A DNA stretch of 64,000 nucleotides from a virus. Its lineage: Duplodnaviria; Caudoviricetes. How positions within the stretch are numbered: the stretch's first letter is position 1; each line of letters starts with the position of its first letter. Positions 1,919-55,525 of the stretch are shown piece by piece. A program made the translations under genes and the position numbers. A model generated the notes under the pieces. It was not told the DNA's origin. It saw only the letters and a program-made list of their open reading frames with translations, and ran no database searches. The stretch spans positions 32,001-96,000 of IMG/VR virus record IMGVR_UViG_3300002895_000002; one strand, 5' to 3'.

Positions 1919-2947
1919 ATGCATTGTACCTATACAACCCATATCAAGGTTAATCGAACAGATATTGATAATGTCAAAGAAATTTTGGCTAAAGGTATCT
2001 GTTCTGCTACTCTCCGAGACATCAAAGGGAAACACCTTACCTATATCATCGAATCAGGAAGGATTGATACCCTCCATAAAATAGCAGAAATTTTAACCTC
2101 AAAAGGGATTCCTGCTACATATAATCCCAAAGGTTCGGGTTCATCTGTTGGACGGGTGGAGGGCGTTGGTTTTGTTATCTTTGTCCGGCCAAAAAACCTT
2201 CGTTTTGGTGAGTCAGCGAACTCTCTCAATGAGAAACATCTTTTTGATGAAATCCAAAGAATTTCGTCGCCAGATCATCCTGTTGATGTTATATTCGATT
2301 CAGAGGATAAGAAGTTTGAAGTGACTGGTGTTATTGGGGCTGTTCAGTGTAATACCAAAACAAAAAACGCAAAAGGGCAGGCACTCAAAGCAGATGTAAC
2401 CATCAAGACAGTTAATGGGGATGTGCCCATATCAATCAAGTTTGATAATGCTGATTTTTATGCTTCAATCAGTAATGACGAAGATGAGGTTTCAAAGATA
2501 GCGGAACGAGTCATTGAATGGATAAGAAAAACAAATCCTGGAATTATCAAACAAAACCGGGATCTGTTTTCAATGTTTGGAACCGGTGTGATTGCGATTG
2601 AAGTTGACAAAGCATTGATTGTTGACTACATGTTTGGTGCTGACATTCTCAATGGTGGGGCTATTCTGTTCTATAACTATCACGATGAACGTTCAAAGAT
2701 GCACAATGTCCCAGACAAAAAATCAACATACAAGATGCATGTGAAGGATATCATAAGAAATGTTGATGATATAAATAAAGAAGGACTAGGCCTAGATTAT
2801 CCGGTTTTGACGATCCTAAATCATTCCCGAAAAAGGCTGGGTAAATACAAAGGGTTGAATCTTCGGTTAGCAACAAAACGACGAGCAAGGTCAGCAAAGT
2901 TCTGGTTTACATATCACAACGGAAATCTCTCCATTAAAAAGGAATAG
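1919..2947 (+). CDS. hypothetical protein, possible PD-(D/E)xK restriction-like nuclease
   Basis: 342-aa AT-rich ORF containing KADVTIKTVNGDVPISIK, which fits a D-x(n)-[DES]xK pattern. Confidence 0.5.
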   Translation: MHCTYTTHIKVNRTDIDNVKEILAKGICSATLRDIKGKHLTYIIESGRIDTLHKIAEILTSKGIPATYNPKGSGSSVGRVEGVGFVIFVRPKNLRFGESANSLNEKHLFDEIQRISSPDHPVDVIFDSEDKKFEVTGVIGAVQCNTKTKNAKGQALKADVTIKTVNGDVPISIKFDNADFYASISNDEDEVSKIAERVIEWIRKTNPGIIKQNRDLFSMFGTGVIAIEVDKALIVDYMFGADILNGGAILFYNYHDERSKMHNVPDKKSTYKMHVKDIIRNVDDINKEGLGLDYPVLTILNHSRKRLGKYKGLNLRLATKRRARSAKFWFTYHNGNLSIKKE

Positions 2948-5921: not shown

Positions 5922-7535
5922 ATGGGCCTGTCCTGGTTCACAGATGAAGAAGTAGTTCCCAAGAAGGAAGCCAAACAAAAAGCAGCGAAAGGTGAGGCTC
6001 CCCTTCGTAAGGACGACATCAAGGAGATGAACGATGTCGAGCACATCCTTCACCGGCCGACTATCTACATCGGTTCCGTCCTTGAAGAAGACATCGAGAC
6101 TTTCGTCTACGAAAATGGGCGGGTGGTGTCCAAGCCTGTGAAGCAGATTCCGGGTCTGTGTAAGATCATTGACGAGATCATAGACAACTCCGTTGACGAG
6201 GCGATCCGGACCAAATTCCAGTATGCCACGAAGATTGATGTAACCTTCAAAGATGGAACGGTAACGATCGAAGACAATGGTCGTGGTCTTCCCATCGAGC
6301 AACGGGAAGATGGCAAGTGGACCCCGGAAGTTATCTTTACCAAAACCAAATCCGGCTCTAACTTCAACGACGACGGCCGGGCTACGATGGGAATGAACGG
6401 GGTTGGCTCATCCCTCACTAACATTTTCTCAACCATCTTCAGTGTAGATACCGCCAACGGTGTCAAGCGGTTCCGTCAGACCTACGAAAATTCCATCTCG
6501 AAGATTGGGAAGCCGAAGATTGAGCCTGGCAAGAGCAACTACACCCAGGTTTCCTTCAGACCGAACTATGATTACTTCAAAGCGTCAGCTGAGACCATAT
6601 CCAACCTGCCGTTGTTGATCGAGAAACGGATCAGGAACCTGGCGTTTGCGTTCCCTGAAATCCAGTTCCGGTTCAACGGTCAGAAGATTGCAGGCGGAAA
6701 CCTCCGTCAGTTCCTGTCACAGATCCACGAGGTGTTTGAGTACAACGAAACAGATGACGCCAGGATTGGCGTGTTCTTCTCAGAAAATGATTTCCAGCAG
6801 ATCTCGTTCGTCAACGGTCTCGAGACCCGCCGGGGTGGTGTACACATCGACCAGATAATGAACAGGATCGTTGACTACCTGCGGGACTACCTGAAGAAGA
6901 AGCACAAGATCGAGGTCAAGCCGGCGGACATCAAGAGCAAGATCTTCCTGATGTTCTCGATGCGTATGACCAACGCCCAGTTTGATGGCCAAACCAAAGA
7001 ACGACTGATGAACAGCATCACTGAGTTCAAGGACACAATCGAGGGTGTGATAACTGAGAAGTTTCTCAAGACCATCGCCAAGAACGAAGAGATCATTGCT
7101 CCCATCGTTGAGTCCTACAAGCTCCAGCAGCAGGTCAAGGAGAACCTGGAGCTCAAGAAAATGTCCAAGGTGGCCAAGAAGGTCAAGGTGGACAAGTATT
7201 TCTCAGCTACCAACGAGCAACGGTATCTTATGTTGTGCGAAGGCGACTCAGCGGCAGGTGGATTGATGGCAGCTCTGGGTAGGGACCAGTTCTCTTACTT
7301 CGCCCTCCGTGGTGTACCCCTCAACGCTCACGAAGCTAAGGTCAGTAAGATCACTGACAACGAAGAGCTCAAGAACGTGGTGCAGATACTGAATCTGGAC
7401 CTCACTAAGGACTTCCAGGACATTCCTGAAGGCAGCTTATGGTTCGAAGTTGAACTTGACGGTGAGAAAATAGTAGTAAATGAAAACGATGAAGTATATG
7501 TCAATGGTAAATGGATAAAGGTAACAGAACTATGA
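5922..7535 (+). CDS. DNA topoisomerase II large subunit, N-terminal part (T4 gp39-like)
   Basis: GHKL ATPase motifs EIIDNSVDE, EDNGRGLP, GMNGVGSSLTN; TOPRIM start CEGDSA and LRGVPLN; lacks DxDG; SD GGAGG before ATG 5922. Confidence 0.95.
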   Translation: MGLSWFTDEEVVPKKEAKQKAAKGEAPLRKDDIKEMNDVEHILHRPTIYIGSVLEEDIETFVYENGRVVSKPVKQIPGLCKIIDEIIDNSVDEAIRTKFQYATKIDVTFKDGTVTIEDNGRGLPIEQREDGKWTPEVIFTKTKSGSNFNDDGRATMGMNGVGSSLTNIFSTIFSVDTANGVKRFRQTYENSISKIGKPKIEPGKSNYTQVSFRPNYDYFKASAETISNLPLLIEKRIRNLAFAFPEIQFRFNGQKIAGGNLRQFLSQIHEVFEYNETDDARIGVFFSENDFQQISFVNGLETRRGGVHIDQIMNRIVDYLRDYLKKKHKIEVKPADIKSKIFLMFSMRMTNAQFDGQTKERLMNSITEFKDTIEGVITEKFLKTIAKNEEIIAPIVESYKLQQQVKENLELKKMSKVAKKVKVDKYFSATNEQRYLMLCEGDSAAGGLMAALGRDQFSYFALRGVPLNAHEAKVSKITDNEELKNVVQILNLDLTKDFQDIPEGSLWFEVELDGEKIVVNENDEVYVNGKWIKVTEL

Positions 7536-17067: not shown

Positions 17068-18009
17068 ATGAAACATATTGGTACGAGTAGTTTATGGGTA
17101 GAAAAATACCGCCCAAGATGCGTCGCAGACTACCTGGCAACACCTAAGGTCAAATCAATTCTCGACCACATCATTCAGACCAACGACATTCCTCATCTCC
17201 TGCTCTACTCCAAGAGCCCAGGCACAGGTAAGACCACGTTCGCAAACGTGGTGGCTAAAGAGCTCGAATGTGACCTGCTCTACAAGAACGGGTCAATCGA
17301 CACTAGCATCGACAGCATCCGGTATGACGTGCAGCAGTTCACAATGACCAGCTCACTGATGGGTGGGAAGAAGCTCGTGGTGCTCGACGAGGCAGAGCGG
17401 CTCTCACAGAATGCCCAGGAAGCACTGAAAGTCCTGATGGAACAGTGTGAAGGAAACGCACGGTTCATCATCTGTACCAACAACATGCAACGGGTGGTGG
17501 CTCCGGTTATCAGTCGTTGTCAGATCGTTGAGTTTGACCATACTGAGGCGGACAAGCAAGCACTGATGATTCAGTATTTCAAGCGGGTCCAGTTCATCCT
17601 CTCCAACGAAGGAGTTGAGTACGACAAAGCAGTGCTCGCAGAGCTCATCAAGAAGCTCTACCCAGACCTTCGCAAGACTATCGGTCAGCTCCAGCAATTC
17701 TCCAAAACCCACAAGAGCATCACCCAAGAAGTGTTAGGTGATCTCGACGATAGTCAGACCCTGGATCTCGTTGCGAAGATGAAGGCAAAGAAGTTCGAAC
17801 CGATCCGAGCAGCCTGCAGTAACATTGACCCAAGTGGATTTTTCTCAACGTTCTATGCTGAGATATCAAATCTTCTTCAGCCAGAGTGCATTCCCGATAC
17901 AATTTTGATTTTAGCCAGGTACGCGAACACGCATTGCCTAACTACAGATACCGAAATAAATCTCGCGGCATGCATCGTTGAGCTCATGTCAACCATCAAG
18001 TGGAAATAA
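17068..18009 (+). CDS. clamp loader large subunit (T4 gp44/RFC-like AAA+)
   Basis: LWVEKYRP, Walker A SPGTGKTT, Walker B LDEAE, SRC motif; SD AAGGAG. Confidence 0.95.
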   Translation: MKHIGTSSLWVEKYRPRCVADYLATPKVKSILDHIIQTNDIPHLLLYSKSPGTGKTTFANVVAKELECDLLYKNGSIDTSIDSIRYDVQQFTMTSSLMGGKKLVVLDEAERLSQNAQEALKVLMEQCEGNARFIICTNNMQRVVAPVISRCQIVEFDHTEADKQALMIQYFKRVQFILSNEGVEYDKAVLAELIKKLYPDLRKTIGQLQQFSKTHKSITQEVLGDLDDSQTLDLVAKMKAKKFEPIRAACSNIDPSGFFSTFYAEISNLLQPECIPDTILILARYANTHCLTTDTEINLAACIVELMSTIKWK

Positions 18010-18910
18010 TTACAGAAGATTCTATCCGGAGAGACCAACCAGGTGTTGAAGAAAGTCTCCGGATAGAATCTTTCTTTTTCAAACCAGGGCTGATATTGAT
18101 TGGAGGGACAACAGTTCCTTTGTTGGCTAGGAGCTGTTTTGGTGATAGGAGATGCTCATTACAGAAATCCCAAAGATCTGCCGTTTTAAATTCCTTACCA
18201 TCAGGGCTGGTTAGTATATAGAGTTTATTTGTTATCCTTATGTTTTTGCCTTGGGTCTTTTCCGGCAATGGGCTGAATTGATTTGGGGCATCATATAGTT
18301 CGGACAACAACCATCCTTCGGTGTTCATGAGACGTTGGACTGAATTTGGTTTGTGTAGGCCCAATGGAATTTCGATTTTTGGGACAACAGATCCAAGATG
18401 AGCCAAGAGATGCTTAGGAGAAAGGGTTAGGTGAGTACACCACTGAATCAGGTCATTGATTAGATATTCATTGCCATTTGGGTCTGTGAGATTGTAGAAT
18501 TTTTTATTGTGTGGTGTCGATCCTTTTATGAATGGTTTCATTCTTTCTCTGATTTGTGGTTGGTTTGTTATTTTCCCTTGATAGTTTGGGTTATTTTCTC
18601 CGGATCGAAACCCAGAACCGCCCGGAATTTGATTATAAGTGTCTGTTCTAGATATAAACCAGTCATCAACAATCATTTTTTCTAGTTCATAGGCGTGTTC
18701 ATCCGATAAAGCTTCGTGAAGAATTATTCGTTCGAAGTTTTCTCGGCCATAAAGTTTGATTGCATCAGAAATTATGGTTCCGGACCCAAGGTATGGATCA
18801 CTTTTGGTATGAGAAGAATGTTTTCCAACGTAGATTTTACCGTTGATCTTATTGCGGATGAGATAAACGAAATGATAGACTGGGTCTTTTTTACCACGAC
18901 GGGAACGCAT
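17996..18910 (-). mobile_element. GIY-YIG homing endonuclease (Seg-like)
   Basis: FVYLIRNKINGKIYVGKH; tandem DNA-binding repeats (LTDPNGNEY / LTSPDGKEF); SD GAGGTG before ATG 18910. Confidence 0.9.
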
Positions 18911-18922
18911 GACATTCACCTC

Positions 18923-19012
18923 AATAAATAGATGTGACGGGGACAGTGGAGTTTCACCTCCTCCATTGGTTGTCAGTGCCACCTGCAACCTTACCTGTTC
19001 CTTTTATTTATC
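18923..19012. ncRNA. structured HEG-leader element, copy 1
   Basis: two hairpins bounded by opposed ATAAATA boxes; 72 nt (18924-18995) identical to copy 3. Confidence 0.7.
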
Positions 19013-19046: not shown

Positions 19047-19226
19047 ATGAATAAAGAAATGAAGATCAGATGTCAGGTTTGTGGGGAATGGATTCCTGTT
19101 CGTTATATTCACGAGCATGTTGATTGGCAACACCAGGTCAATACTGAATACCATAGTTACATCATGAGTTTAACAATCGAACAGATATTAGAAAATTCCA
19201 AGAATCAATTCCAGATTAGAATTTGA
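19047..19226 (+). CDS. 59-aa C2H2-like zinc-finger protein, copy 1 (absent from ORF track)
   Basis: MNKEMKIRCQVCGEWIPVRYIHEHVDWQH...; paralog at 32502 differs mostly at synonymous sites. Confidence 0.75.
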   Translation: MNKEMKIRCQVCGEWIPVRYIHEHVDWQHQVNTEYHSYIMSLTIEQILENSKNQFQIRI

Positions 19227-22831: not shown

Positions 22832-24361
22832 TTGGGAAAGAATTATATCAACGTCTACGAGTCTGATAAAGATGTCATCACCCATGTCTACGTGGAGGAT
22901 GGTGTTCGGAAGGTAGAGAAGGAAATCTTTCAACCGTTTTGTGCTGTCAACTCGGTTGTGCCTACCGGTTGGACTGACATTCACGGAAGAGATGTCAACC
23001 CCAAAATGTTCCGAAGCATGTCCGATTATCGGGCATGGAAGAAAGAAAATGATGGATTGTTTGACATATACGGAGATGTCAAGCCCGAATATCAATTCAT
23101 CGCCAAAAACTACCGAGAAACAATCGTTCCCAACAAAGAGGGAATGAACATCTACAACTTCGATATCGAGGTTGAGGTCCCGCCCGGAAGTGGTTTTCCT
23201 GACACGGAACAGGCTCTGTTCCCAATCAACGCCATCACAATCCAGAACATGGTGAAGGACCGGTACTACTCCTTCGCATACAAGAAACCCAAGGCATTAC
23301 CTGACGGCGTTGACGTTGTCTATGTCCAATGTGAATCTGAGATTGACATGCTGGACAAGTTTCTCAAGTTCTGGACTGACTACCCATGCGACATCATGAC
23401 AGGGTGGAACATCAGAATCTTCGATATTCCCTACCTCATCAATCGTTTGAATAGGGTTTGTGGTTCAAATACTCACCTCAAACTCTCACCGTGTCGGAAG
23501 ATAGGCAAGCATGAGTCAAAGCACATGCCGGGCGAGTTCTACTATGTGATCCGTGGTGTAACGGACATGGACTACATCGAGCTCTACAAGAAATTCACCT
23601 ACGAGTCCAGGGAACGGTATTCCCTCGATTACATCGCACAGTACGAACTCGGGAAAGAGAAGATCAAGTTCAAAGAAGACCACGAAGACCTGTATGAGCT
23701 CTACCATCAGGATTTCACCAAGTTCCTAGCATACAACATCAAAGACGTTGAGCTTGTATCTGACCTGGATAAGAAGCTCAAGTACATCGACCTGGCTCTC
23801 TTCGTTATGTACAAGGCCAAGTGCCTTCCGGAAGATATCTTCGGTACGGTGAAGATCTGGGATTCATACCTCTACAACGTCCTGATGGACCGGAAGATCT
23901 TCTGTCCGCCCAACAAGAGGCACAGTGCTCAAGAATACCCGGGTGGGTATGTTGGTGATCCTGAGGTTGGGATGCATCGTTGGGTCATGGTGTTTGACGT
24001 TGCATCATCTTACCCGAACCAGATCCGATCATACAACATGTCACCGGAAACGATTATTGACGAACACCAGTTGTCCTCTGAATTGAGAGACATCCGTGCT
24101 AATTTTGGATCAATCGAGGGATGCTTAGACCAGGATATCCTCGAGAAGGACAATATAAGTGAAGTTCTTCAGAGACATAACGTTTCAATGGCACCGAACG
24201 GACATTTCTTCGACATATCACAAGAAGGGATTCTTCCGGGTGTGATTGGTGAACTGTTCAATGAAAGAAAATCAGTCAAAAAATCGATGGGTTTATTGAA
24301 GAAAGAATTGGAGGACCTTAGGAGGAAGCTTTCTGATGGCGATTTTGAAATGCAAGATTGA
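22832..24361 (+). CDS. family B DNA polymerase, N-terminal subunit (gp43A-like)
   Basis: ExoI FDIE, ExoII GWNIRIFDIPY, ExoIII YNIKDV, motif A DVASSYP; ends in the fingers helix; TTG start after AAGGAG. Confidence 0.95.
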   Translation: MGKNYINVYESDKDVITHVYVEDGVRKVEKEIFQPFCAVNSVVPTGWTDIHGRDVNPKMFRSMSDYRAWKKENDGLFDIYGDVKPEYQFIAKNYRETIVPNKEGMNIYNFDIEVEVPPGSGFPDTEQALFPINAITIQNMVKDRYYSFAYKKPKALPDGVDVVYVQCESEIDMLDKFLKFWTDYPCDIMTGWNIRIFDIPYLINRLNRVCGSNTHLKLSPCRKIGKHESKHMPGEFYYVIRGVTDMDYIELYKKFTYESRERYSLDYIAQYELGKEKIKFKEDHEDLYELYHQDFTKFLAYNIKDVELVSDLDKKLKYIDLALFVMYKAKCLPEDIFGTVKIWDSYLYNVLMDRKIFCPPNKRHSAQEYPGGYVGDPEVGMHRWVMVFDVASSYPNQIRSYNMSPETIIDEHQLSSELRDIRANFGSIEGCLDQDILEKDNISEVLQRHNVSMAPNGHFFDISQEGILPGVIGELFNERKSVKKSMGLLKKELEDLRRKLSDGDFEMQD

Positions 24362-24505: not shown

Positions 24506-25537
24506 CTAGAGTATCAAAAGTTCAAATACATACCCAGCACTTTTTGTTGCTTCCCATTTAGCATTGTTCCTATCAACATCTTGGGTAGCTGTATATAATG
24601 ATTTTACTTCGATAATAAGATTTTCCGATGGGATGAAAATATCAGGATAATATCGCCGATGTTTTCCTTCAAAGGTGTACATGATTTTGGGTATACGGGA
24701 TTTTTCGACAATGATATCATCCTCTGAATATCACTCAAGCAACAGATCCAGAGCTTTTGGTTCATTACCTTGGACACGAACAATTTTGCCGGACGGAAAT
24801 GTATATTGCTTTTGAGAAAACCAATCCCTCCGGTCAAGATACTCCGGTACGTGCATGTTACTTTCTACTCCGTATCTATCCATTAGACTCTGTCTGCTTT
24901 TTATTCTGAACTCGGGAGTTGACATAAAGAAACGATTCCCGTGGTTTTGTAGGTTTGACTCTTCGACCTTTTGTTGAATATTTTTGTTTTGGAATGGAAA
25001 CTCGACACCATATCTTTCTTGATTTGTTTTGGTAATTCTTGCTCTCAATATAGGGCTATTCATGGGACCAGAGCCACCATACCGTTCAATCATAGTGTCA
25101 GTGCCCTTTTTCTTTATTTCTGGGTTTTTATTATGATGAGACACCCCATATCGTTCTTCACATGTTTGCTTTGCTCCGGATCTATTATTATACGTTTCCG
25201 AACCATGTCTTTCTAGTAAGGTTTGTTTCCGTTTATCATTCCATTCTTTGCCTCTGCTCCGGCAAGAATGTGAACAGTAGGTTTCTTTATAGGGGACAGT
25301 TGCGGAACAGAATTTTGTTATTGGCTGGTTACATGTTGGGCAGATTTTAGGATAATCAGACCAATCGTTTAGGATCCAAACAATCCGCTCTATTATATTG
25401 TCACTTTTACATTTTTGGGTTGATGTGAATATTTCATGTTTTATTTCTTCAGGACATTGTTTGACTTTTGAAGGATTTATGCCTCTGGAATGAAATAAAT
25501 TATTTCTAATAAATGTTTTCAAATCAAGTCCGCTCAT
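24506..25537 (-). mobile_element. homing endonuclease (TnsA-like PD-(D/E)xK) with in-frame TGA at 24731-24733
   Basis: ERYGV/ERHG repeats, CPTC zinc motif; the catalytic YYPDIFIPSENLIIEVKS lies 3' of the TGA in the same frame, which closes at TAG 24506. Confidence 0.8.
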
Positions 25538-25549
25538 GTGATGCCTTTC

Positions 25550-25578
25550 TTGACGACAATGTGTAATCATGTTATTAT
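25550..25578 (+). promoter_or_regulatory. sigma70-type promoter for the polymerase C-part
   Basis: TTGACG-17-TATTAT with TG. Confidence 0.65.
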
Positions 25579-25609
25579 TTATAAAACTTGAACAAAAAAG
25601 GAGTATATT

Positions 25610-26671
25610 TTGACTAAGACAGAAATAGAAAATAGAATCAAGGAGATACAGAATCAGCTGGCCGCAATGGACGCAATGCAACAATCCATAAAAATCCTTA
25701 TGAATAGCGCGTATGGTGCCTTTGGTAACCAGCACTTCCGGTATTTCGATATCCGCATAGCGTCTGGTATCACCACTGCAGGTCAGGTTACGATCCGTGG
25801 AGTGTCTCAATATTGTGAGAGCAAGATACCGTTGCTGTCGAACATCTACAACGACACAGACTCGATCTTTCTGGCCCTGGAGCCGATGGTCAAGAAGCGT
25901 TTCCCGAATGGTGCTTCAATCAAGGAGACAGCAGATTTTATTCTCAAGCTCTCTGATCAGGTTATCTCTCCCACGATAGAGGAATACTTTACCAGACTGA
26001 GCAAGAACCTCAACATGCGAATCTTGACTATATCACTGGAGCCTGAGTGCATCTCAGACGTCTGTTTCTTCAAGGCAAAGAAAAAGTATGCCATGAAGCA
26101 AACCTGGGTAGAAGGGTCGTGGTATCTGGACAAGACTAAGCTGAAGATCAAAGGTATTGAGATTGTCCGGACGTCAACACCTCAGTTCTGTCGGGATACA
26201 TTGAAGAAGGCTGTTGAGCTTATCTTCGAAACCCAGGACAACCAGACAGTGGTTGACTATATCAAGAAGGTTAAGGAAGAGTTCCTTCAGCTCCCGTTCG
26301 AACAGAAGGCCTTCCCGCGTGGAGTGAATGGGATTGATAAGCATCAGATTGGTGGACCCGGCATACCCATTCACGTCAGAGCGGCATTGATCTACAACAA
26401 TGCAATCAAGTCCATGAAGCTAACGAAGAAATATCCCCTGATTGCTGAGGGGAATAAGCTCTTGTTTGGGTTTATCAAGACACCCAACAAGCTCGGGACT
26501 GAGGTTATTGCATGTCCCGAAAAGATGCCTGAAGAGATTCTCAGCATGATTGAGATGGACGATGAGGTTCAATTCGAGAAGGCATACCTCTCCCCGATCA
26601 TGAGTATATTTGAAGCGATAGGGTGGCACTTGGAAAAGAAACAACAGAGCCTGGAAGATTTCTTCGGGTAG
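25610..26671 (+). CDS. family B DNA polymerase, C-terminal subunit (gp43B-like)
   Basis: motif B KILMNSAYG, motif C YNDTDS, KKKYA, KGIEIVRTSTP, C-terminal PIP-like SLEDFFG; SD AAGGAG + TTG. Confidence 0.95.
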   Translation: MTKTEIENRIKEIQNQLAAMDAMQQSIKILMNSAYGAFGNQHFRYFDIRIASGITTAGQVTIRGVSQYCESKIPLLSNIYNDTDSIFLALEPMVKKRFPNGASIKETADFILKLSDQVISPTIEEYFTRLSKNLNMRILTISLEPECISDVCFFKAKKKYAMKQTWVEGSWYLDKTKLKIKGIEIVRTSTPQFCRDTLKKAVELIFETQDNQTVVDYIKKVKEEFLQLPFEQKAFPRGVNGIDKHQIGGPGIPIHVRAALIYNNAIKSMKLTKKYPLIAEGNKLLFGFIKTPNKLGTEVIACPEKMPEEILSMIEMDDEVQFEKAYLSPIMSIFEAIGWHLEKKQQSLEDFFG

Positions 26672-28642: not shown

Positions 28643-29299
28643 TCATTGATAATGAAGATGCATGGCTAAGATAATTATAAGTTCCTTTCTTTCTCGTGCT
28701 AATCTTTTATGTGTAGCTGACATTTTATTTTTAGTTTCTTCTGAAATTATCTGTTTTGCCCGGGCTTCCTTGATTTTATTTTTAGATTCATCTGAATGTT
28801 GTTTTCCAAAGAACGAATTTTTATTTCCTTTGTGGGAATCGCTTTGTTGTTTGATGTAGTCCTCGGAATAGGCATACCCATTTGCAAATTTAGAATGCCT
28901 GGTTTTTGATATTTTTTGTTTAGTGCTTTCGGATTGAATGTAACCCATTTTAGCATCAGATATTTTTTGTTTATGTTCGTCTGAATGTGAATAATTTATT
29001 CGTAAAAGTAAATAATCTTTTGACCCATATCTCTTACAATTTGTCATTCTTAGAATTGCTTTAGCCATTTTTGGGCCTTTGACTTTATGGCCACGCCAGA
29101 TACGAGCAAGAAGCAGATGGGCAATGAAGTGTTCCCTGATGGGTAGATTGACTCTGTTCCATGAACCATGTATATCTTCTATTCCATCAAGCTTTGCAAA
29201 CGACTTTGGAATAATGTGATGACTTTCGGTTTGTTTTTTGATCTTGGAAGTGTTTCAGTTGTGTTCAATAAGACGGTCGTAAATGGACTGGTAATTCAT
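28643..29299 (-). mobile_element. HNH homing endonuclease (Mob-like, NUMOD3 repeats) with in-frame TGA at codon 15
   Basis: MNYQSIYDRLIEHN*...ESHHIIPKS...NRVNLPIREHFIAHLLLARIW; NUMOD3 NSFFGKQHSDESK; TGA at 29255-29257. Confidence 0.85.
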
Positions 29300-29310
29300 G
29301 ACAGTTCCCC

Positions 29311-29402
29311 TATAAATAGATGTGACGAGGACAGCAGGGAAGTTCCCCTCTCTGTTGGTCGTGTACGCCCATACCGACCTTACTCGTTCTATTCTATTTA
29401 TA
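29311..29402. ncRNA. structured HEG-leader element, copy 2 (diverged)
   Basis: same flanks as copies 1 and 3, with compensatory stem changes. Confidence 0.7.
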
Positions 29403-29418: not shown

Positions 29419-29446
29419 TTGACTTTTTATATCAATGTTGTATAAT
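29419..29446 (+). promoter_or_regulatory. sigma70-type promoter
   Basis: TTGACT-16-TATAAT. Confidence 0.6.
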
Positions 29447-29470
29447 TTAACTTATTTGTAAGGAGAAAAT

Positions 29471-30802: not shown

Positions 30803-31616
30803 GCTTCCCATCGTTGAAAAATTCGGTCCGGCCATCCAGGGTGAGGGGTTACTTGCAGGAACACCGTCACTCTTCATTCGGGTCTTTGGTTGCAACCTTC
30901 GTTGTCAGTTTGGGTGCTCCTCTGACGAATACGCAGCGTTCCGAAAGCAACTTGCTGAGGATACCGCTGGGATCACCAATCTCGATGATTTCCCGGTTGT
31001 GTCGACGGGGTGTGATACCCCTTACTCCATCTTCCCTGAGTATCGCCGGTTCACAAAGACGGAAAGCCCCCTGGACCTTGAGCGGTGGGTTGTTGAACGG
31101 CTCACTCGGGACATGCATTTGGTTATCACTGGTGGTGAACCACTGCTCCCGGGTTATCAGGAAGCATGGGAAGAGCTTCTTGAGAATCTCAAAATACAAG
31201 GATATGATCTCGGAAAGGTCACGTTCGAGACCAACGGAACTCAGCCACTAACTGGGTGGTTCTCCAGGTTCCTTTGGCGTAACGATGATGTCAATTTTTC
31301 TATCAGCCCAAAGCTCTCATGCTCCGGGATGGCTCCTGAAAAAGCACTGGTCCCTGATGCTATTCAGTCATATGAAGACGCCGGCGTCAATATGTGGTTC
31401 AAATTTGTCGTTGCATCAGACAAGGACGCAGAGGAGGCTCTGGAAGCGGTTAAGAGCTTTGGCTTGTGCTGTGATTACCCGATCTACTTTATGCCGATGG
31501 GTGGCACGAAAGATACGCTCTCTGAAAGAGCAACATACGAGCTGGCTCTCAAGTATGGCGTCCGGTATAGCCCGAGACTACAGGTATCTATCCTTGATAA
31601 TGGGATTGGTGTTTAG
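30795..31616 (+). CDS. queE: 7-carboxy-7-deazaguanine synthase (radical SAM)
   Basis: IQGEGLLAGTPSLFIRVFGCNLRC...GCDTPY, VITGGEP, FETNGT, ISPKL, YSPRLQ. Confidence 0.9.
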   Translation: MNRLPIVEKFGPAIQGEGLLAGTPSLFIRVFGCNLRCQFGCSSDEYAAFRKQLAEDTAGITNLDDFPVVSTGCDTPYSIFPEYRRFTKTESPLDLERWVVERLTRDMHLVITGGEPLLPGYQEAWEELLENLKIQGYDLGKVTFETNGTQPLTGWFSRFLWRNDDVNFSISPKLSCSGMAPEKALVPDAIQSYEDAGVNMWFKFVVASDKDAEEALEAVKSFGLCCDYPIYFMPMGGTKDTLSERATYELALKYGVRYSPRLQVSILDNGIGV

Positions 31617-32367
31617 GTTTGCTACATCCGGGAATTCGACCCCGGACCCAACCCATTTCTAAATAATGTTGAGCTTGCTCTGGAGAAACCAGGAAATGCT
31701 GAGAATGGTTAGTCACCCATACCTTACCTTTGGTGTTACTGACCATCCCTTTCATTGTTTGTTTTCTTTTTTCGTTTGATTCGGGTGTTGGTGGCTGTCC
31801 TTTGGGGTGAGAATAGAATTTTTCTTTCGTGTGAGCAGGCCACCCCATCTGGTATCCCATTTCAAGATACCGAGGAACCTCTTCGGGTGGTACTCGAAAA
31901 CACCCAGAACTGTTATGAACAACCTTTCTTCCCGTAAACTTTTTAGATCGATTGATATAACCAGCCTTGCAATTTTCAGTTCCGTGAGGAGGAGTATCCC
32001 CTCCATCCGTACTGTTTGTCAATGGACCACCATTGATCGTTCTACCAATCAAAGAAATAAGAAACGGTTCGTAGCAATACAGAGCAGTAAACTCAACCAG
32101 GTTGGAAGATGTTTTTATAATATAATCTCTTATATCAAAATGCTGCATTATAGCCCGAATGGTGTTGTTTTTATGTTTATTCGTACATCTCTCCATGCTT
32201 TTCTTCTGCAAGTGATATCTCCATCTATCACCAGTACCCTTACCAACATAGAAAGGTTCATAGAAGAAGGTAACGAAATTTCCGTAGGTATATCTTCCGG
32301 GCTTCCGAGGGTCAAGATAGATGTAGACATAATACTTGGGTTCGTGGGAGAACTTTGCTGTTTTCAC
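31588..32367 (-). mobile_element. GIY-YIG (LEM-3-like) homing endonuclease
   Basis: YYVYIYLDPRK...PFYVGKGTGDR; repeated KVVHNS/KVWVTNH domains; SD GAGGTG + GTG. Confidence 0.85.
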
Positions 32368-32378
32368 GATTTCACCTC

Positions 32379-32470
32379 TATAAATAGATGTGACGGGGAC
32401 AGTGGAGTTTCACCTCCTCCATTGGTTGTCAGTGCCACCTGCAACCTTACCCGTTCCATCCTTATTTATC
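32379..32470. ncRNA. structured HEG-leader element, copy 3
   Basis: 72-nt identity to copy 1. Confidence 0.7.
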
Positions 32471-32501: not shown

Positions 32502-32681
32502 ATGAATAAAGAAATGAAGATCAGATGTCAGGTTTGTGGTGAATGGATTCCAGTTCGGTACATTCATAACCACGTGGATTGGCAACACCAGGCCAACACC
32601 GAATACCATAGTTACATTATGGGATTAACAGTCGAAGAGATATTAGAAAATTCAAAGAATAATTTCCAGCTCAGAATTTGA
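32502..32681 (+). CDS. 59-aa C2H2-like zinc-finger protein, copy 2 (absent from ORF track)
   Basis: 52/59 aa identical to 19047-19226. Confidence 0.75.
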   Translation: MNKEMKIRCQVCGEWIPVRYIHNHVDWQHQANTEYHSYIMGLTVEEILENSKNNFQLRI

Positions 32682-34780: not shown

Positions 34781-35143
34781 ATGATCAAAAGGTACATTGA
34801 AGTTCAGATTGTTAAGGAAGGGTGTCACCGTTATCCAGCAGCAGAAACAGATCCAAAACTGGCTGACGTTGATTATCTAGCAAACAGACATTTTCACTAT
34901 TTCTACATCACGGTCAAGATTGAAGTATTTCATAATGATCGGTGTCTTGAATTTCAACAATTTCGTCGATATCTCGAGAAACTCTATAATCAAGGAATTC
35001 TCGAGATAGATTTCAAGTCATGTGAAATGCTCGCCGAAGACCTCATCGGAACTTTGAGCCGAACATATCCAGACCGGGATATGTCAATTCGAGTGTTTGA
35101 AGATAATATCAACGGTGCTGAATTAGTGTATACTGTTGACTAG
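34781..35143 (+). CDS. small QueD-like T-fold protein, DpdL (CDG decarboxylase) candidate
   Basis: HRYPAA...RHFHYF...HNDRCLEF...SCEMLAE; follows dpdA directly. Confidence 0.45.
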   Translation: MIKRYIEVQIVKEGCHRYPAAETDPKLADVDYLANRHFHYFYITVKIEVFHNDRCLEFQQFRRYLEKLYNQGILEIDFKSCEMLAEDLIGTLSRTYPDRDMSIRVFEDNINGAELVYTVD

Positions 35144-35917
35144 GATTGAACTGACAGTTTCTGGGTTATTGTATATTTCAGATTCTTTGAATCGAATGAC
35201 ACGATAACCCAGACTGTCAGCAATCAATTCACATTCATTATCGCGTTTTATTGTTTCTGGTTTTGAATGCCAATAATCACCATCTACTTCAACTAGGATG
35301 TTTGTATTTTTGATCAAAAAATCATAACAGTGGCGCCAATTTGAATTTTTGGTCTTTTTGAATTGGATAAGAAATTGTTGCTCATATTCTATTCCAAGAG
35401 ATGACATGATCTCAATCATTTTCCTCTCTGGTTTAGTATTGGAACCCAAACGACCGGATTTGATTAGAGAAATAACATTTCTCGACGTTGCATCTTTGTG
35501 TTTTTCCGTTCTGGTATATCGCCCAATTCTAGAATTATCACGAACAGCAGCAGATCTCTTCATTTTTTCTTTTGCATCTTCAGAATGGGTCTTTCCAAAC
35601 ATGGGATTATTTTCACCAATCGTTTTGCCCTTCTTTGCATTGGAAATATTCTCATTTCTATTCTTTACCCATTCTGGATCTTTTGATTTTTCATCTATTG
35701 ATTTTCTTGCACGTTCAGCCATTCTTTTTGCATGGCTGGATCTTTCTTCCGGGGTTGTTCTCGCTTCTCTTGATTCTTTTTGTCTTCTAATTATTTCGGG
35801 GCATTTGGTTATTGATTTTTGACATCGCTTTGTTTTTGTGTTATAACTGATGTATAGAGCAGGAAGACCACAATATGCACAGACGTCTTGTTCGGTTGGG
35901 TTCTCAATCAATGGCAT
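35123..35917 (-). mobile_element. homing endonuclease, NUMOD3 + Vsr/DUF559-like domain
   Basis: GENNPMFGKTHSEDAK; CYDFLIKNTNILVEVDGDYWH; SD GGAG. Confidence 0.85.
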
Positions 35918-35980
35918 GGTAAATACTCCAGACATAAATTCATTCTATCCATCATTATTTATCAAGAAAGGCAAGAAATA

Positions 35981-53089: not shown

Positions 53090-55525
53090 ATGAAACTGTA
53101 TGGTAACCTCAAGCTTCACGGAGGCGAGCTTCAGAACCTCAAGCTGGAAGTTCTGACAGATGATCCGACTGGCATAGGTCTGTTTGAAGGTCGTCTGTGG
53201 TACAACAGCACCGCTGATGCTATCAAGTATTATGACGGGGCTGATGTACAAATCGTTGGTGATACCGCCGAACTCCAAACTGTCATCAACAACCTCAACA
53301 CCGAGATCACCGCACGTCAGAACGCAGATACTACTCTTCAGGCTAACATTGACGCTGAAGAAACTGCTCGTGTTGCTGCCGATGCTACTCTGACTTCTAA
53401 CCTTGCTGCTGAGGTTACGAACCGCCAGAATGCAGATTCCACTCTGCAAAGCAACATCAACACCGTTCAGAGCAACCTGAACACCGAGGCAACGACTCGT
53501 CAGAATGCAGACACAACTCTTCAGGCCAATATCGACGCTGAAGCAACTACTCGCGCTGCTGCGGACACAACTCTGACCAACAACCTGAATGCAGAGATTA
53601 CTGCACGTCAAAATGCAGATTCAACGCTGCAAGCAAACATTGACGCTGAAGCAACTGCTCGTGCTGCGGCTGATTCCACATTGACATCGAACCTTGCTGC
53701 TGAGGTTACGAACCGTCAAAATGCCGACTCTACTCTCCAGGCTAACATTGACACTGAAGCAACTGCTCGTGCTGCTGCTGATACGACGTTAACCAACAGC
53801 CTGGATGCAGAGGCAACTGCTCGTGCTAATGCTGACACCACTCTCCAGGCTAACATCGATAATGAAGTCTCGGCCCGTACCGCTGCCGTTGCTCTGAAGG
53901 TAAGCAAGTCCGGCGATAGCATGAGCGGTAACCTGGCCATGGGCGGAGTTGCCAAAGTAACCGGCATGGTTGCCCCGACTGATCCGACTGATGCTGCTAC
54001 CAAAGCATACGTTGACAGTCTGGCTTCCGGTCTTGTCTGGCGTGATCCGATCGTTCTCATCAACTTCACGGGTTCTGCTTCTGCTCCGGTTGCTTCTCCT
54101 GTCAAGTACGATTCGTATGTCATCGATGTCGGCGGCGCTACTGGTGCATGGGCAGGCTTTGCTGAAGGTGATGTTGTTCAGTGCACCGATGAAGCTGGCC
54201 CGGTTTGGACCAAGGTAACCGATTTTACCGTTGGTCAGCACTATGTAATCTCCGGTATCACTGAGACCACCCCGATTGGTATTGCTGCTGGTCACCTCAC
54301 CGATTACATGACCGTAACCAATGCTGTTCCGGGTTCGTATGCAGCTACCTTTGACGAGCCTATCGAGGGCAACGCAGTGTTCGTTGGTGATCCGGGTGCC
54401 GCTCTGTTCGGCCGTTCATACACCTATGCCGCTTCTACCGCTGCACCGACCGGCAACCCGACCCATACCTGGATTCAGTTCGGCGGTCCGGGTGCTACTG
54501 GCGCAGGCGTTGGTCTGTACTACGAAGGCAACGTTCTTCACGTCAACCTCGGTGCTGGTATTGCTCAGCTCCCGACTGACGAAGTTGGTATCGACCTGTA
54601 TGCAACTGGCGGTCTTGAACTGGTTGATCCGGGTACCGGTCTTCCGTCGAATGCTTCGGATGCAGTTCTTGCTATCAATGCAGCTGATACATCCATCACT
54701 GTAGACGGCAATGGTATCAAACTTGCTACTACGCTTCAGACGGCAATCTCTTCCAACACTTCTGCCATTGCTGCTGAGACGACTGCTCGTCAGAATGCCG
54801 ATACCACACTGCAGGCTAACATCGACGCTGAAGCAACTGCTCGCATTGCAGCAGACAGCACTCTCCAGGCAAACATCGATGCTGAAGCTACCACAAGGGC
54901 AGCAGCTGATACGACATTGACCAACAACCTCAATGCAGAGATCACGGCACGTCAGAACGCAGACAGTACGCTCCAAGCTAACATCGATGCAGAGGTAACG
55001 GCAAGGACCGGTGCAGATACCACCCTTACTAACAACCTCAACGCTGAGATCACTGCACGTACCAACGCTGACACTACGCTCCAGGCTAACATTGATGCTG
55101 AAGCAACTGCTCGTGCCAACGCTGATACGACACTGACCAACAATCTCAACGCTGAGATCACTGCCAGGACGAATGCTGATACGACTCTCCAGGCTAACAT
55201 CGATGCAGAGGCAACCGCAAGAGCCAATGCTGATACGACGCTCCAAGCCAATATCGATGCTGAAGCAACTGCTCGTGCTAACGCCGACACAACGCTCCAG
55301 ACCAACATCGATGCATGTGCCAAGCGTTATCAGTTCACTGCCGGCGCTGCGAACACCTCGTTCACCATCAACCACAACCTCGGTTACAAGTATGTCAACG
55401 TAACTGTATACGACTCGGTTGACGACGAAGTTATCATCCCGAACAGCATCCAGGCAATCAGCACCAACAGCCTAACAATCACCTTTACCTCCGCTGTTCA
55501 ACCGATCGTCAAGATCGTTGCCTAA
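53090..55525 (+). CDS. long fibre protein with coiled-coil repeat shafts
   Basis: two blocks of 18-aa repeats (TLQANIDAEATARAAADS / TLTNNLNAEITARQNADS) around a central beta domain; C-terminal HNLG...VYD domain. Confidence 0.8.
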   Translation: MKLYGNLKLHGGELQNLKLEVLTDDPTGIGLFEGRLWYNSTADAIKYYDGADVQIVGDTAELQTVINNLNTEITARQNADTTLQANIDAEETARVAADATLTSNLAAEVTNRQNADSTLQSNINTVQSNLNTEATTRQNADTTLQANIDAEATTRAAADTTLTNNLNAEITARQNADSTLQANIDAEATARAAADSTLTSNLAAEVTNRQNADSTLQANIDTEATARAAADTTLTNSLDAEATARANADTTLQANIDNEVSARTAAVALKVSKSGDSMSGNLAMGGVAKVTGMVAPTDPTDAATKAYVDSLASGLVWRDPIVLINFTGSASAPVASPVKYDSYVIDVGGATGAWAGFAEGDVVQCTDEAGPVWTKVTDFTVGQHYVISGITETTPIGIAAGHLTDYMTVTNAVPGSYAATFDEPIEGNAVFVGDPGAALFGRSYTYAASTAAPTGNPTHTWIQFGGPGATGAGVGLYYEGNVLHVNLGAGIAQLPTDEVGIDLYATGGLELVDPGTGLPSNASDAVLAINAADTSITVDGNGIKLATTLQTAISSNTSAIAAETTARQNADTTLQANIDAEATARIAADSTLQANIDAEATTRAAADTTLTNNLNAEITARQNADSTLQANIDAEVTARTGADTTLTNNLNAEITARTNADTTLQANIDAEATARANADTTLTNNLNAEITARTNADTTLQANIDAEATARANADTTLQANIDAEATARANADTTLQTNIDACAKRYQFTAGAANTSFTINHNLGYKYVNVTVYDSVDDEVIIPNSIQAISTNSLTITFTSAVQPIVKIVA
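53278..53880 (+). repeat. 54-nt coding tandem repeats, block 1
   Basis: synonymously diverged 18-aa units. Confidence 0.8.
54760..55320 (+). repeat. 54-nt coding tandem repeats, block 2
   Basis: same unit as block 1. Confidence 0.8.

Follow-up and report, generated by a model that had tools for sequence, protein, structure and literature searches.

A three-way-junction leader with a loop copy of the ribosome binding site precedes genes for selfish nucleases in one group of T4-like phages

A short element that lies directly ahead of nuclease genes in a distant T4-like phage appears, from its covariation, to be a real and strongly supported new family of structured RNA. We consider it probable (roughly 85%) that the element is a late leader RNA that acts on translation initiation and serves as a portable expression cassette. 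The window analyzed here, a stretch of 64,000 nucleotides, comprises bases 32001-96000 of a 213,116-bp IMG/VR virus record that is complete according to CheckV. The phage encodes a gp44 clamp loader and a gp43 polymerase that is split in two, as judged by Pfam and protein matches, and its nearest cultured polymerases, those of the Methylophilales phage Melnitz and of cyanophages, are 35 to 39% identical. Most of its genes lie on the plus strand, and its sequence is contained, in small shares, in three soil DNA sequencing runs and in no RNA run. The two parts of gp43, a family B DNA polymerase, are encoded by plus-strand open reading frames (ORFs) at window positions 22832-24361 and 25610-26671. 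Between them, and overlapping the start of the second half, lies a minus-strand DUF7487 gene (24731-25810) without the leader; DUF7487 genes with the leader occur in other contigs (L173).

BLAST and nhmmer recovered 16 copies of the element in the 213-kb genome, and the E values, 1e-11 to 1e-22 in nhmmer, place it far above chance. All 16 are on the minus strand and sit between a (G/T)ATAAATA box on that strand and the Shine-Dalgarno (SD) sequence of a nuclease gene, which is of the Mob-like HNH/NUMOD3 type in 10 cases and of the GIY-YIG type in 6; several of these genes are decayed. From 5' to 3', the parts are the box, a three-way junction of helices P1, P2, and P3, an A/U-rich tail of about 13 nt that ends in UAUUUAU, the SD sequence, and the start codon. 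Downstream of the copy at genome position 6964, a GIY-YIG gene (6243-6965 of the genome, minus strand) changes frame in a run of seven A residues (NLINEKK...); decay to a pseudogene, slippage, and an error of sequencing are all candidate causes.

Three copies fall within the window, on the minus strand at the places where an initial annotation of this DNA had put them, each 5' of the SD of a nuclease gene; all coordinates of these leaders and their genes are on the minus strand. The first leader, from late-promoter box to ATG, spans 18908-19012 (covariance model score, 105.1 bits). Its box, GATAAATA, lies at 19005-19012; the transcript is predicted to begin some 6 nt beyond it, at the foot of P1, in which ACAGG (18994-18998) pairs with CCCGU (18937-18941) with one A.C mismatch. 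The P2 hairpin (18968-18990; 5+3 bp, a bulged A, and the loop GUGGCA) is followed by the P3 hairpin UGGAG-GAGGUGAAA-CUCCA (18947-18965), the loop of which is a copy of the ribosome binding site (RBS) of the gene, GAGGUGAA. The junction strand CUGUC, the 3' strand of P1 (CCCGU), and the tail CACAUCUAUUUAU, whose final 7 nt are an inverted late-promoter box, together occupy 18924-18946; the SD, spacer, and ATG (UGAGGUGAAUGUCAUG) follow at 18908-18923. The gene itself (17996-18910) encodes a SegE-like GIY-YIG homing endonuclease (Pfam, E = 1.8e-5). The second leader (29297-29402; 104.9 bits) consists of the box TATAAATA (29395-29402), P1 in the form ACGAG/CUCGU (29383-29387 with 29325-29329), P2 (29357-29379), P3 (29335-29354) with the RBS mimic AGGGGAACU, the tail (29312-29324), and the RBS and ATG (29297-29311). 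The third (32365-32470; 103 bits) has the box GATAAATA (32463-32470), P1 in the form ACGGG/CCCGU (32450-32454 with 32393-32397), P2 (32424-32446), P3 (32403-32421) with the mimic GAGGUGAAA, the tail (32380-32392), and an RBS with a GTG start (32365-32379), and it precedes a LEM-3-like GIY-YIG nuclease gene (31588-32367; Pfam, 2.3e-8). The two GIY-YIG assignments of the initial annotation, Seg-like and LEM-3-like, are borne out by Pfam; the HNH gene that it placed behind the second copy is a pseudogene. This Mob-like HNH/NUMOD3 remnant (28643-29299) meets a stop after 14 codons, and a NUMOD3 remnant persists within it at 28643-29068. A near-consensus sigma-70-type promoter, TTGACT-N17-TATAAT, is found at 29419-29450 on the plus strand, between the late box of the second copy and a nucleoside 2-deoxyribosyltransferase gene, and similar early-type promoters follow the copies at genome positions 193238 and 206388.

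The near identity first noticed between copies 1 and 3 amounts to 2 differences in 87 nt, with 71 identical nt between them. Each adjoins a Cys/His-rich ORF of 59 amino acids on the plus strand, one just past the promoter of copy 1 (19047-19226) and its paralogue next to copy 3 (32502-32681). The many synonymous differences said to separate these ORFs are present as well: 22 of 180 nt differ, affecting 11 codons synonymously and 7 nonsynonymously. The leader is duplicated together with the 59-aa ORF, while the nuclease differs. Both ORFs carry a CxxC...HxH pattern, with a third partial match near window positions 1952-1981, and neither gave a match in Pfam or PHROGs. Elsewhere in the window (53216-55366), eight copies of a repeat with a 108-nt period, 60 to 73% identical, lie in an Ala-rich coding region that probably specifies a repetitive structural or fiber protein.

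The fold was derived with RNAalifold and a covariance model built on the 16 genome copies. P1, ACGGG/CCCGU, covaries to ACGAG/CUCGU, ACAGG/CCUGU, and ACCGG/CCGGU; P2 keeps the layout that the initial annotation had drawn for its first stem, 5+3 bp with a bulged A and a 6-nt loop, and this loop is variable; P3 has 3 to 5 bp and a loop of 6 to 10 nt. UAA (J12), AA (J23), and NUGUC (J31) connect the helices. In a set of 20 leaders, 97.7% of the cells were paired, compared with 34 to 45% in slid controls; 16 of 25 pairs had changed on both sides, and none of 500 shuffles was as good. With 38 distinct leaders from about 20 contigs, 96.6% of the cells were paired, 19 of the 25 pairs showed double changes (240 cells), and again no shuffle out of 500 matched the alignment. 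The covariation first seen within the window holds in this wider alignment and grows stronger there, which supports the original idea of a portable, covarying structured element common to unrelated nuclease families. Two details of that picture were revised. The flanks GAACRRG and CCYCGU, taken for single strands, instead pair and covary as the third helix, P1. The pseudoknot suggested between GUGGC in the P2 loop and GUCAC was not upheld: 46.9% of the cells were paired, 373 of 500 shuffles did as well, and part of GUCAC belongs to P1.

Among 475 cells in P1 and P2, 463 were Watson-Crick pairs, 3 were G.U, and 4 were A.C. The near absence of G.U means that the fold is equally available to both strands, and with 3 G.U against 4 A.C, the wobble pairs are uninformative as to which strand is the functional one. 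A slipped register, in which the 5' strand of P3 pairs with CUGU of J31, is 95% pairable, through wobbles alone and in the subfamily of this genome only, and it is therefore not a feature of the family. In agreement with the initial failure to recognize an RNA family, Rfam 15 gave no match in the window at the gathering score, and searching the 16 copies at E<=5 returned only a chance snoRNA match (19 bits, against a gathering score of 50).

Searches with a pattern for the exact tail matched just four further contigs, and a tail-specific pattern gave only chance matches in collections of metagenome and genome contigs. A broader pattern (promoter box plus GGUAAG plus UGUCC), followed by the covariance model, was applied to IMG/VR contigs and yielded at least some 19 (about 20) additional leaders in other phages, on contigs that hold T4-type genes (portal, gp41-like helicase, and gp46-like and gp47-like proteins). 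Megablast and blastn detected no copy in 50,697 phage records, the sole match being 20 nt long with a chance-level E of 1, and none of 80 HNH relatives elsewhere in IMG/VR had the leader. Taken over all leaders, the genes served encode LEM-3-like GIY-YIG, SegE-like GIY-YIG, and GIY-YIG/NUMOD3 proteins, two kinds of HNH protein, DUF7487 with a C2H2 finger, DUF4379/DUF723, a ResIII-like protein, and TnpB, the latter with OrfB_IS605 and a Cas12f-like TNB domain. Given this range of families across contigs, the element is a general leader of selfish nuclease genes in one group of T4-like phages. The repeated leader probably doubles as a joint for recombination, in the manner of the PeSL cassettes of these and other T4-like viruses (PMC2839356, PMC4122927).

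All 16 leader-bearing genes of the present genome are antisense to the backbone. That the leader occurs only on nuclease genes in this orientation is true here and false elsewhere, since six leaders in other contigs share the strand of their neighbors; antisense placement is thus not a rule of the family. Nor does every nuclease gene of this genome have the leader: three homing endonuclease genes on the plus strand and at least two on the minus strand have a plain late box and an SD only. Leaderless homing endonuclease genes of this kind lie at genome positions 97660-98424 (minus strand) and 25554, 120107, and 211949 (plus strand), and at the one at 97660, the boxes ATAAATA and TATTTAT still face each other at a distance of 29 nt, with a small hairpin between them. 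In the window, a minus-strand gene for a Vsr/DUF559 plus NUMOD3 nuclease (35123-35935; promoter at about 35950-35965) is preceded by a short leader made up of GATAAATA, a similar spacer, the tail-like GAAUUUAU, and an SD, with the three-way junction absent. In this form, the short leader resembles either the cassette after a deletion or its precursor.

The features that bear on the mechanism are four that the initial annotation lacked: helix P1, the late promoter and its inverted counterpart in the tail, and the copy of the RBS in the loop of what was there called stem 2 (P3). The P3 loop repeats the SD and spacer of its own gene, sharing with it words such as GAGGUGAAA, AGGGGAACU, GGGAGAAU, GGAGUCAC, GGAGAAACCG, CAGGAUAACU, and GCAAGGAAG. 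The longest word common to P3 and its own RBS averaged 7.59 nt, against 4.87 nt (standard deviation, 0.18) on permutation, with 0 of 20,000 permutations as good (N = 37), in a test that kinship among the leaders inflates. At least 15 different RBS words each have their own match in P3, and in the AGGA(A/G)AC subfamily the base before AGGA (G, U, or C) co-varies as well. The conserved tail that separates P3 from the RBS should let recombination uncouple the two, so that the persistence of the match argues for selection. Moreover, the match holds for any sequence, which points to base pairing with a partner that necessarily changes in step. An excess of wobble-compatible differences between the two sites, with A on the mimic side and G on the RBS side, came down to just 2 to 5 independent events, too few to be informative. 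The TnpB gene mentioned above, which lies in another phage contig (L212:1722-3027, minus strand), has the same leader upstream, including an RBS copy, AUAGAGG. No description of a loop that copies and tracks a downstream RBS was found in Rfam or in the literature searched.

Two partners in cis were considered. The 3' strand of P3, acting as an anti-SD, fits the AGGGG/UUCCCU subfamilies and, on reading the sequences, fails for GAGGUGAAA and GGAGAAAC. An anti-RBS upstream of the promoter fared no better, as own pairs (-6.45 kcal/mol) and permuted pairs (-6.47 kcal/mol) did not reveal any copy-specific complementarity. With both cis partners failing, a transcript of the opposite strand is the partner that remains.

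The box (G/T)ATAAATA is one that we take, by analogy with T4, to be a gp55-type late promoter; its activity, like every function of the element, we infer from sequence. Outside the elements, it occurs 58 times on the plus strand and 5 times on the minus strand, mostly just upstream of gene starts. The strand bias of this word is extreme, and almost all minus-strand late boxes belong to nuclease genes. T4 late boxes lie at -13 to -6, and by this spacing rule the late transcript would start 0 to 3 nt before P1. UAUUUAU, the inverted complement of the box, ends the tail in 34 of 38 leaders and was outside the search pattern. The inverted repeat is often longer than the box and is perfect over 17 nt/17 bp in the copy at genome position 108274. 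The opposite strand reads NATAAATA at symmetric spacing, and the predicted transcript start there is the other foot of P1.

As the most likely mechanism, ranked ahead of a 30S decoy and a temporal switch, we tentatively propose an antisense transcript that would start from the inverted box and present a loop matching the RBS. The gp55-type late box would start the mRNA about 6 nt on, at the foot of P1, and the mRNA would begin with the compact three-way junction, to be followed by the A/U-rich tail, SD, and start codon. The inverted box, which faces back over the junction, would fire a late antisense transcript from the other foot of P1. This RNA would fold as a mirror three-way junction, because nearly every pair is Watson-Crick. 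Since P3 copies the RBS, the antisense P3 loop would have two complementary targets, the P3 loop of the sense RNA and the genuine RBS beyond the overlap, and by pairing with either it would tune or repress translation of that nuclease. We count in favor of the antisense transcript the P3/RBS match, the near absence of G.U pairs, as expected if both strands must fold, and the inverted box in 34 of 38 leaders; it is the sole model that accounts at once for the mimic, for helices limited to Watson-Crick pairs, and for the inverted box.

Several observations speak against the antisense transcript. The first base of the inverted box is laxer than that of the 5' box, with A or C in 9 of 34 leaders (T16, G9, A6, C3; T or G in 25 of 34) against 3 of 37 (T23, G11, A3, C0), even if all six leaders that share the strand of their neighbors have G or T at this position of the inverted box. 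The four leaders of 38 that miss the inverted box retain a good RBS copy (for instance, L018, L033b, and L195). A promoter beyond the RBS is a simpler design, to which the mimic is an odd, roundabout solution. Finally, transcription of the backbone in this genome runs opposite to every one of the 16 nuclease genes, so that an anti-RBS RNA exists without an inverted box. In its full form, the proposal would be a cognate "remote-RBS" antisense circuit, in which two face-to-face late promoters have the junction of about 80 bp transcribed both ways and the loop matches an RBS that is not overlapped; we regard this as possible but a little less likely again. If it is true, each selfish nuclease gene (HNH, GIY-YIG, DUF7487, or even TnpB) would come with a repressor of its own, packed into a portable module of 100 bp and matched to that gene.

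Kissing-loop cis-antisense systems such as CopA/CopT, RNAI/RNAII, and hok/sok likewise have stem-loops able to fold on either strand, and SD-like sequences in 5' untranslated regions (UTRs) that bind 30S subunits without initiation are known as 5' stabilizers or standby sites. We know of no kissing-loop or standby system, however, in which a loop copies and co-varies with a downstream RBS. In the cyanophage S-PM2, CfrI is an antisense RNA of about 225 nt that was detected experimentally at one locus, linked to psbA (cited in PMC2984593). Like CfrI, for which a regulatory role is presumed (PMC2984593), the transcript proposed here would run opposite a homing endonuclease gene in a T4-like phage; unlike CfrI, it is predicted from sequence, and a loop matching an RBS outside the overlap is, as far as we know, undescribed.

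Rather unlikely, in our estimate, is a 30S decoy or standby site, in which the SD copy in the P3 loop would bind the 30S subunit without productive initiation. The copy might compete with the RBS and so keep a toxic nuclease low, preload ribosomes for the RBS about 35 to 45 nt downstream, or stabilize the mRNA in the manner of a STAB-SD. Such binding would dispense with a second transcript, and it fits a mimic with an SD-like purine core in every case, predicted to sit for the most part in the loop and followed in J31 by NUG (CUG, UUG, or AUG) at SD-like spacing. It also fits five copies of one subfamily, in which the SD of the mimic, AGGAAAC, is weaker than the real AGGAGAC. Yet binding to 16S rRNA needs no match in the flanks or spacer, and the mimic follows these too (GGAGUCAC, GGGAGAAU[A/G]UC, and CAGGAUAACU). 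An upstream ORF from the NUG is not conserved, as frames 0, 1, and 2 are mixed and the stops scattered, and a decoy leaves the near absence of G.U pairs and the inverted promoter box unexplained.

A temporal switch of the T4 type we consider improbable as the main mechanism, although it may coexist with the antisense transcript or the decoy. Here, a read-through RNA would pair the box and spacer with the tail (P0; AUAAAUA/UAUUUAU plus more) and lock the A/U-rich region by the SD into a structure of high stability, whereas the late RNA, starting inside P0 and without its 5' arm, would be translated. This late-promoter-in-hairpin control is established for I-TevI, I-TevII, I-TevIII, segB, and Aeh1 mobE of the T4 family (PMC2988022). 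As in these hairpins, the late box in our T4-like phage supplies the 5' strand of an RNA helix just ahead of a gene for a homing endonuclease, a potentially harmful enzyme whose late expression is in our case predicted. The AUAAAUA/UAUUUAU repeat in 34 of 38 leaders, extended past the box in several, agrees with a switch, and in several contigs the leader gene is on the strand of its neighbors, where read-through would be common. The T4-family hairpins, however, are single and gene-specific and sequester the SD, whereas here the SD lies 1 to 10 nt outside the P0 helix, and a conserved three-way junction with an RBS copy recurs 16 times per genome before unrelated nuclease families. P0 is invariant and thus provides no evidence from covariation. 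Predicted SD accessibility changes little (0.45 in the late RNA against 0.33 in the read-through RNA) and is inconsistent between copies, and the upstream sequence, by the energies given above, is not specifically complementary to its own RBS. With all 16 genes antisense to the backbone, sense read-through should be rare in this genome, and the conserved inner junction and the mimic would find no explanation. A closer likeness to an unsequestered site is offered by seg43 of Aeromonas phage 25, a free-standing nuclease gene with a stable hairpin that ends right upstream of an accessible RBS (PMC2988022). That structure is a single hairpin, without a reported multicopy family or RBS mimic (PMC2988022), and we found no sequence similarity between it and the element, the blastn match in the phage collection (20 nt; E = 1) being to an Escherichia phage.

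Still less probable is a binding site for a protein of the phage or its host, for example, an RNA chaperone or a regulator of late translation, or protection of the 5' end from RNase E, with P3 and an RBS hairpin as two similar binding sites. The helices vary, whereas the junction nucleotides (GG/UAA/G, AA, and NUGUC/CC) are conserved, as is the bulged A; the structure is at the predicted extreme 5' end, and in one subfamily the RBS does lie in a small P3-like hairpin of its own. One protein could not follow at least 15 mimic/RBS words, however; a candidate protein is lacking, and the scarcity of G.U pairs and the inverted box are left aside.

We hold it to be very unlikely that the arms act primarily as DNA, as hairpins in single strands or cruciforms, for example, at a recombination hot spot resembling the PeSL cassettes of T4-like phages, which combine an early promoter with a terminator stem-loop (PMC2839356, PMC4122927). 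Nearly all pairs are Watson-Crick and the arms make up a long inverted repeat, and identical leaders are joined to different nucleases, as in copies 1 and 3 and in subtypes common to HNH and GIY-YIG genes (the GAGGUGAA type precedes one HNH and three GIY-YIG genes, and the AGGAGAC type precedes three HNH and two GIY-YIG genes). Recombination between repeats requires homology rather than structure, though, and the tracking of the RBS by P3, the fixed position between promoter and SD, and the conserved unpaired junction bases would be unexplained. Both the leader and PeSLs are short regulatory cassettes repeated across a T4-like genome and possible exchange points between unrelated genes; unlike PeSLs, the leader couples a late promoter to a covarying three-way junction tied to nuclease genes, and by the definition in PMC4122927 it differs in having a late-type box and helices that are not followed by a U-run. 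A riboswitch or a self-cleaving ribozyme, the latter among the suggestions of the initial annotation, is highly improbable: a three-way junction of some 75 nt in a 5' UTR, conserved at its junction bases, would suit either, but no Rfam model, ribozymes included, matched even at E<=5, conservation is limited to about 10 nucleotides of the junction, the loops of P2 and P3 are free to vary in contrast to those of purine-type riboswitches, the junctions UAA/AA/NUGUC lack the hammerhead catalytic core, no alternative pairing joins P1 to the SD, and the pseudoknot fails.

In conclusion, selfish nucleases, including free-standing homing endonucleases, need late, low-level expression to persist in phage genomes, and to our knowledge the sole known means of control are hairpins in T4 and a few related phages, each specific to one gene and sequestering its RBS. 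RNA control linked to a late promoter is a known theme for homing endonuclease genes, whereas the RBS copy is an undescribed feature. The element is a modular, multicopy leader that serves at least six unrelated nuclease families, TnpB among them, with a loop that tracks the RBS of each gene. If the antisense or the decoy mechanism is true, the leader would represent a new design of copy-specific translational control and a compact, programmable regulatory part, and it would also provide a sequence marker for selfish nuclease genes in uncultivated T4-like phages.
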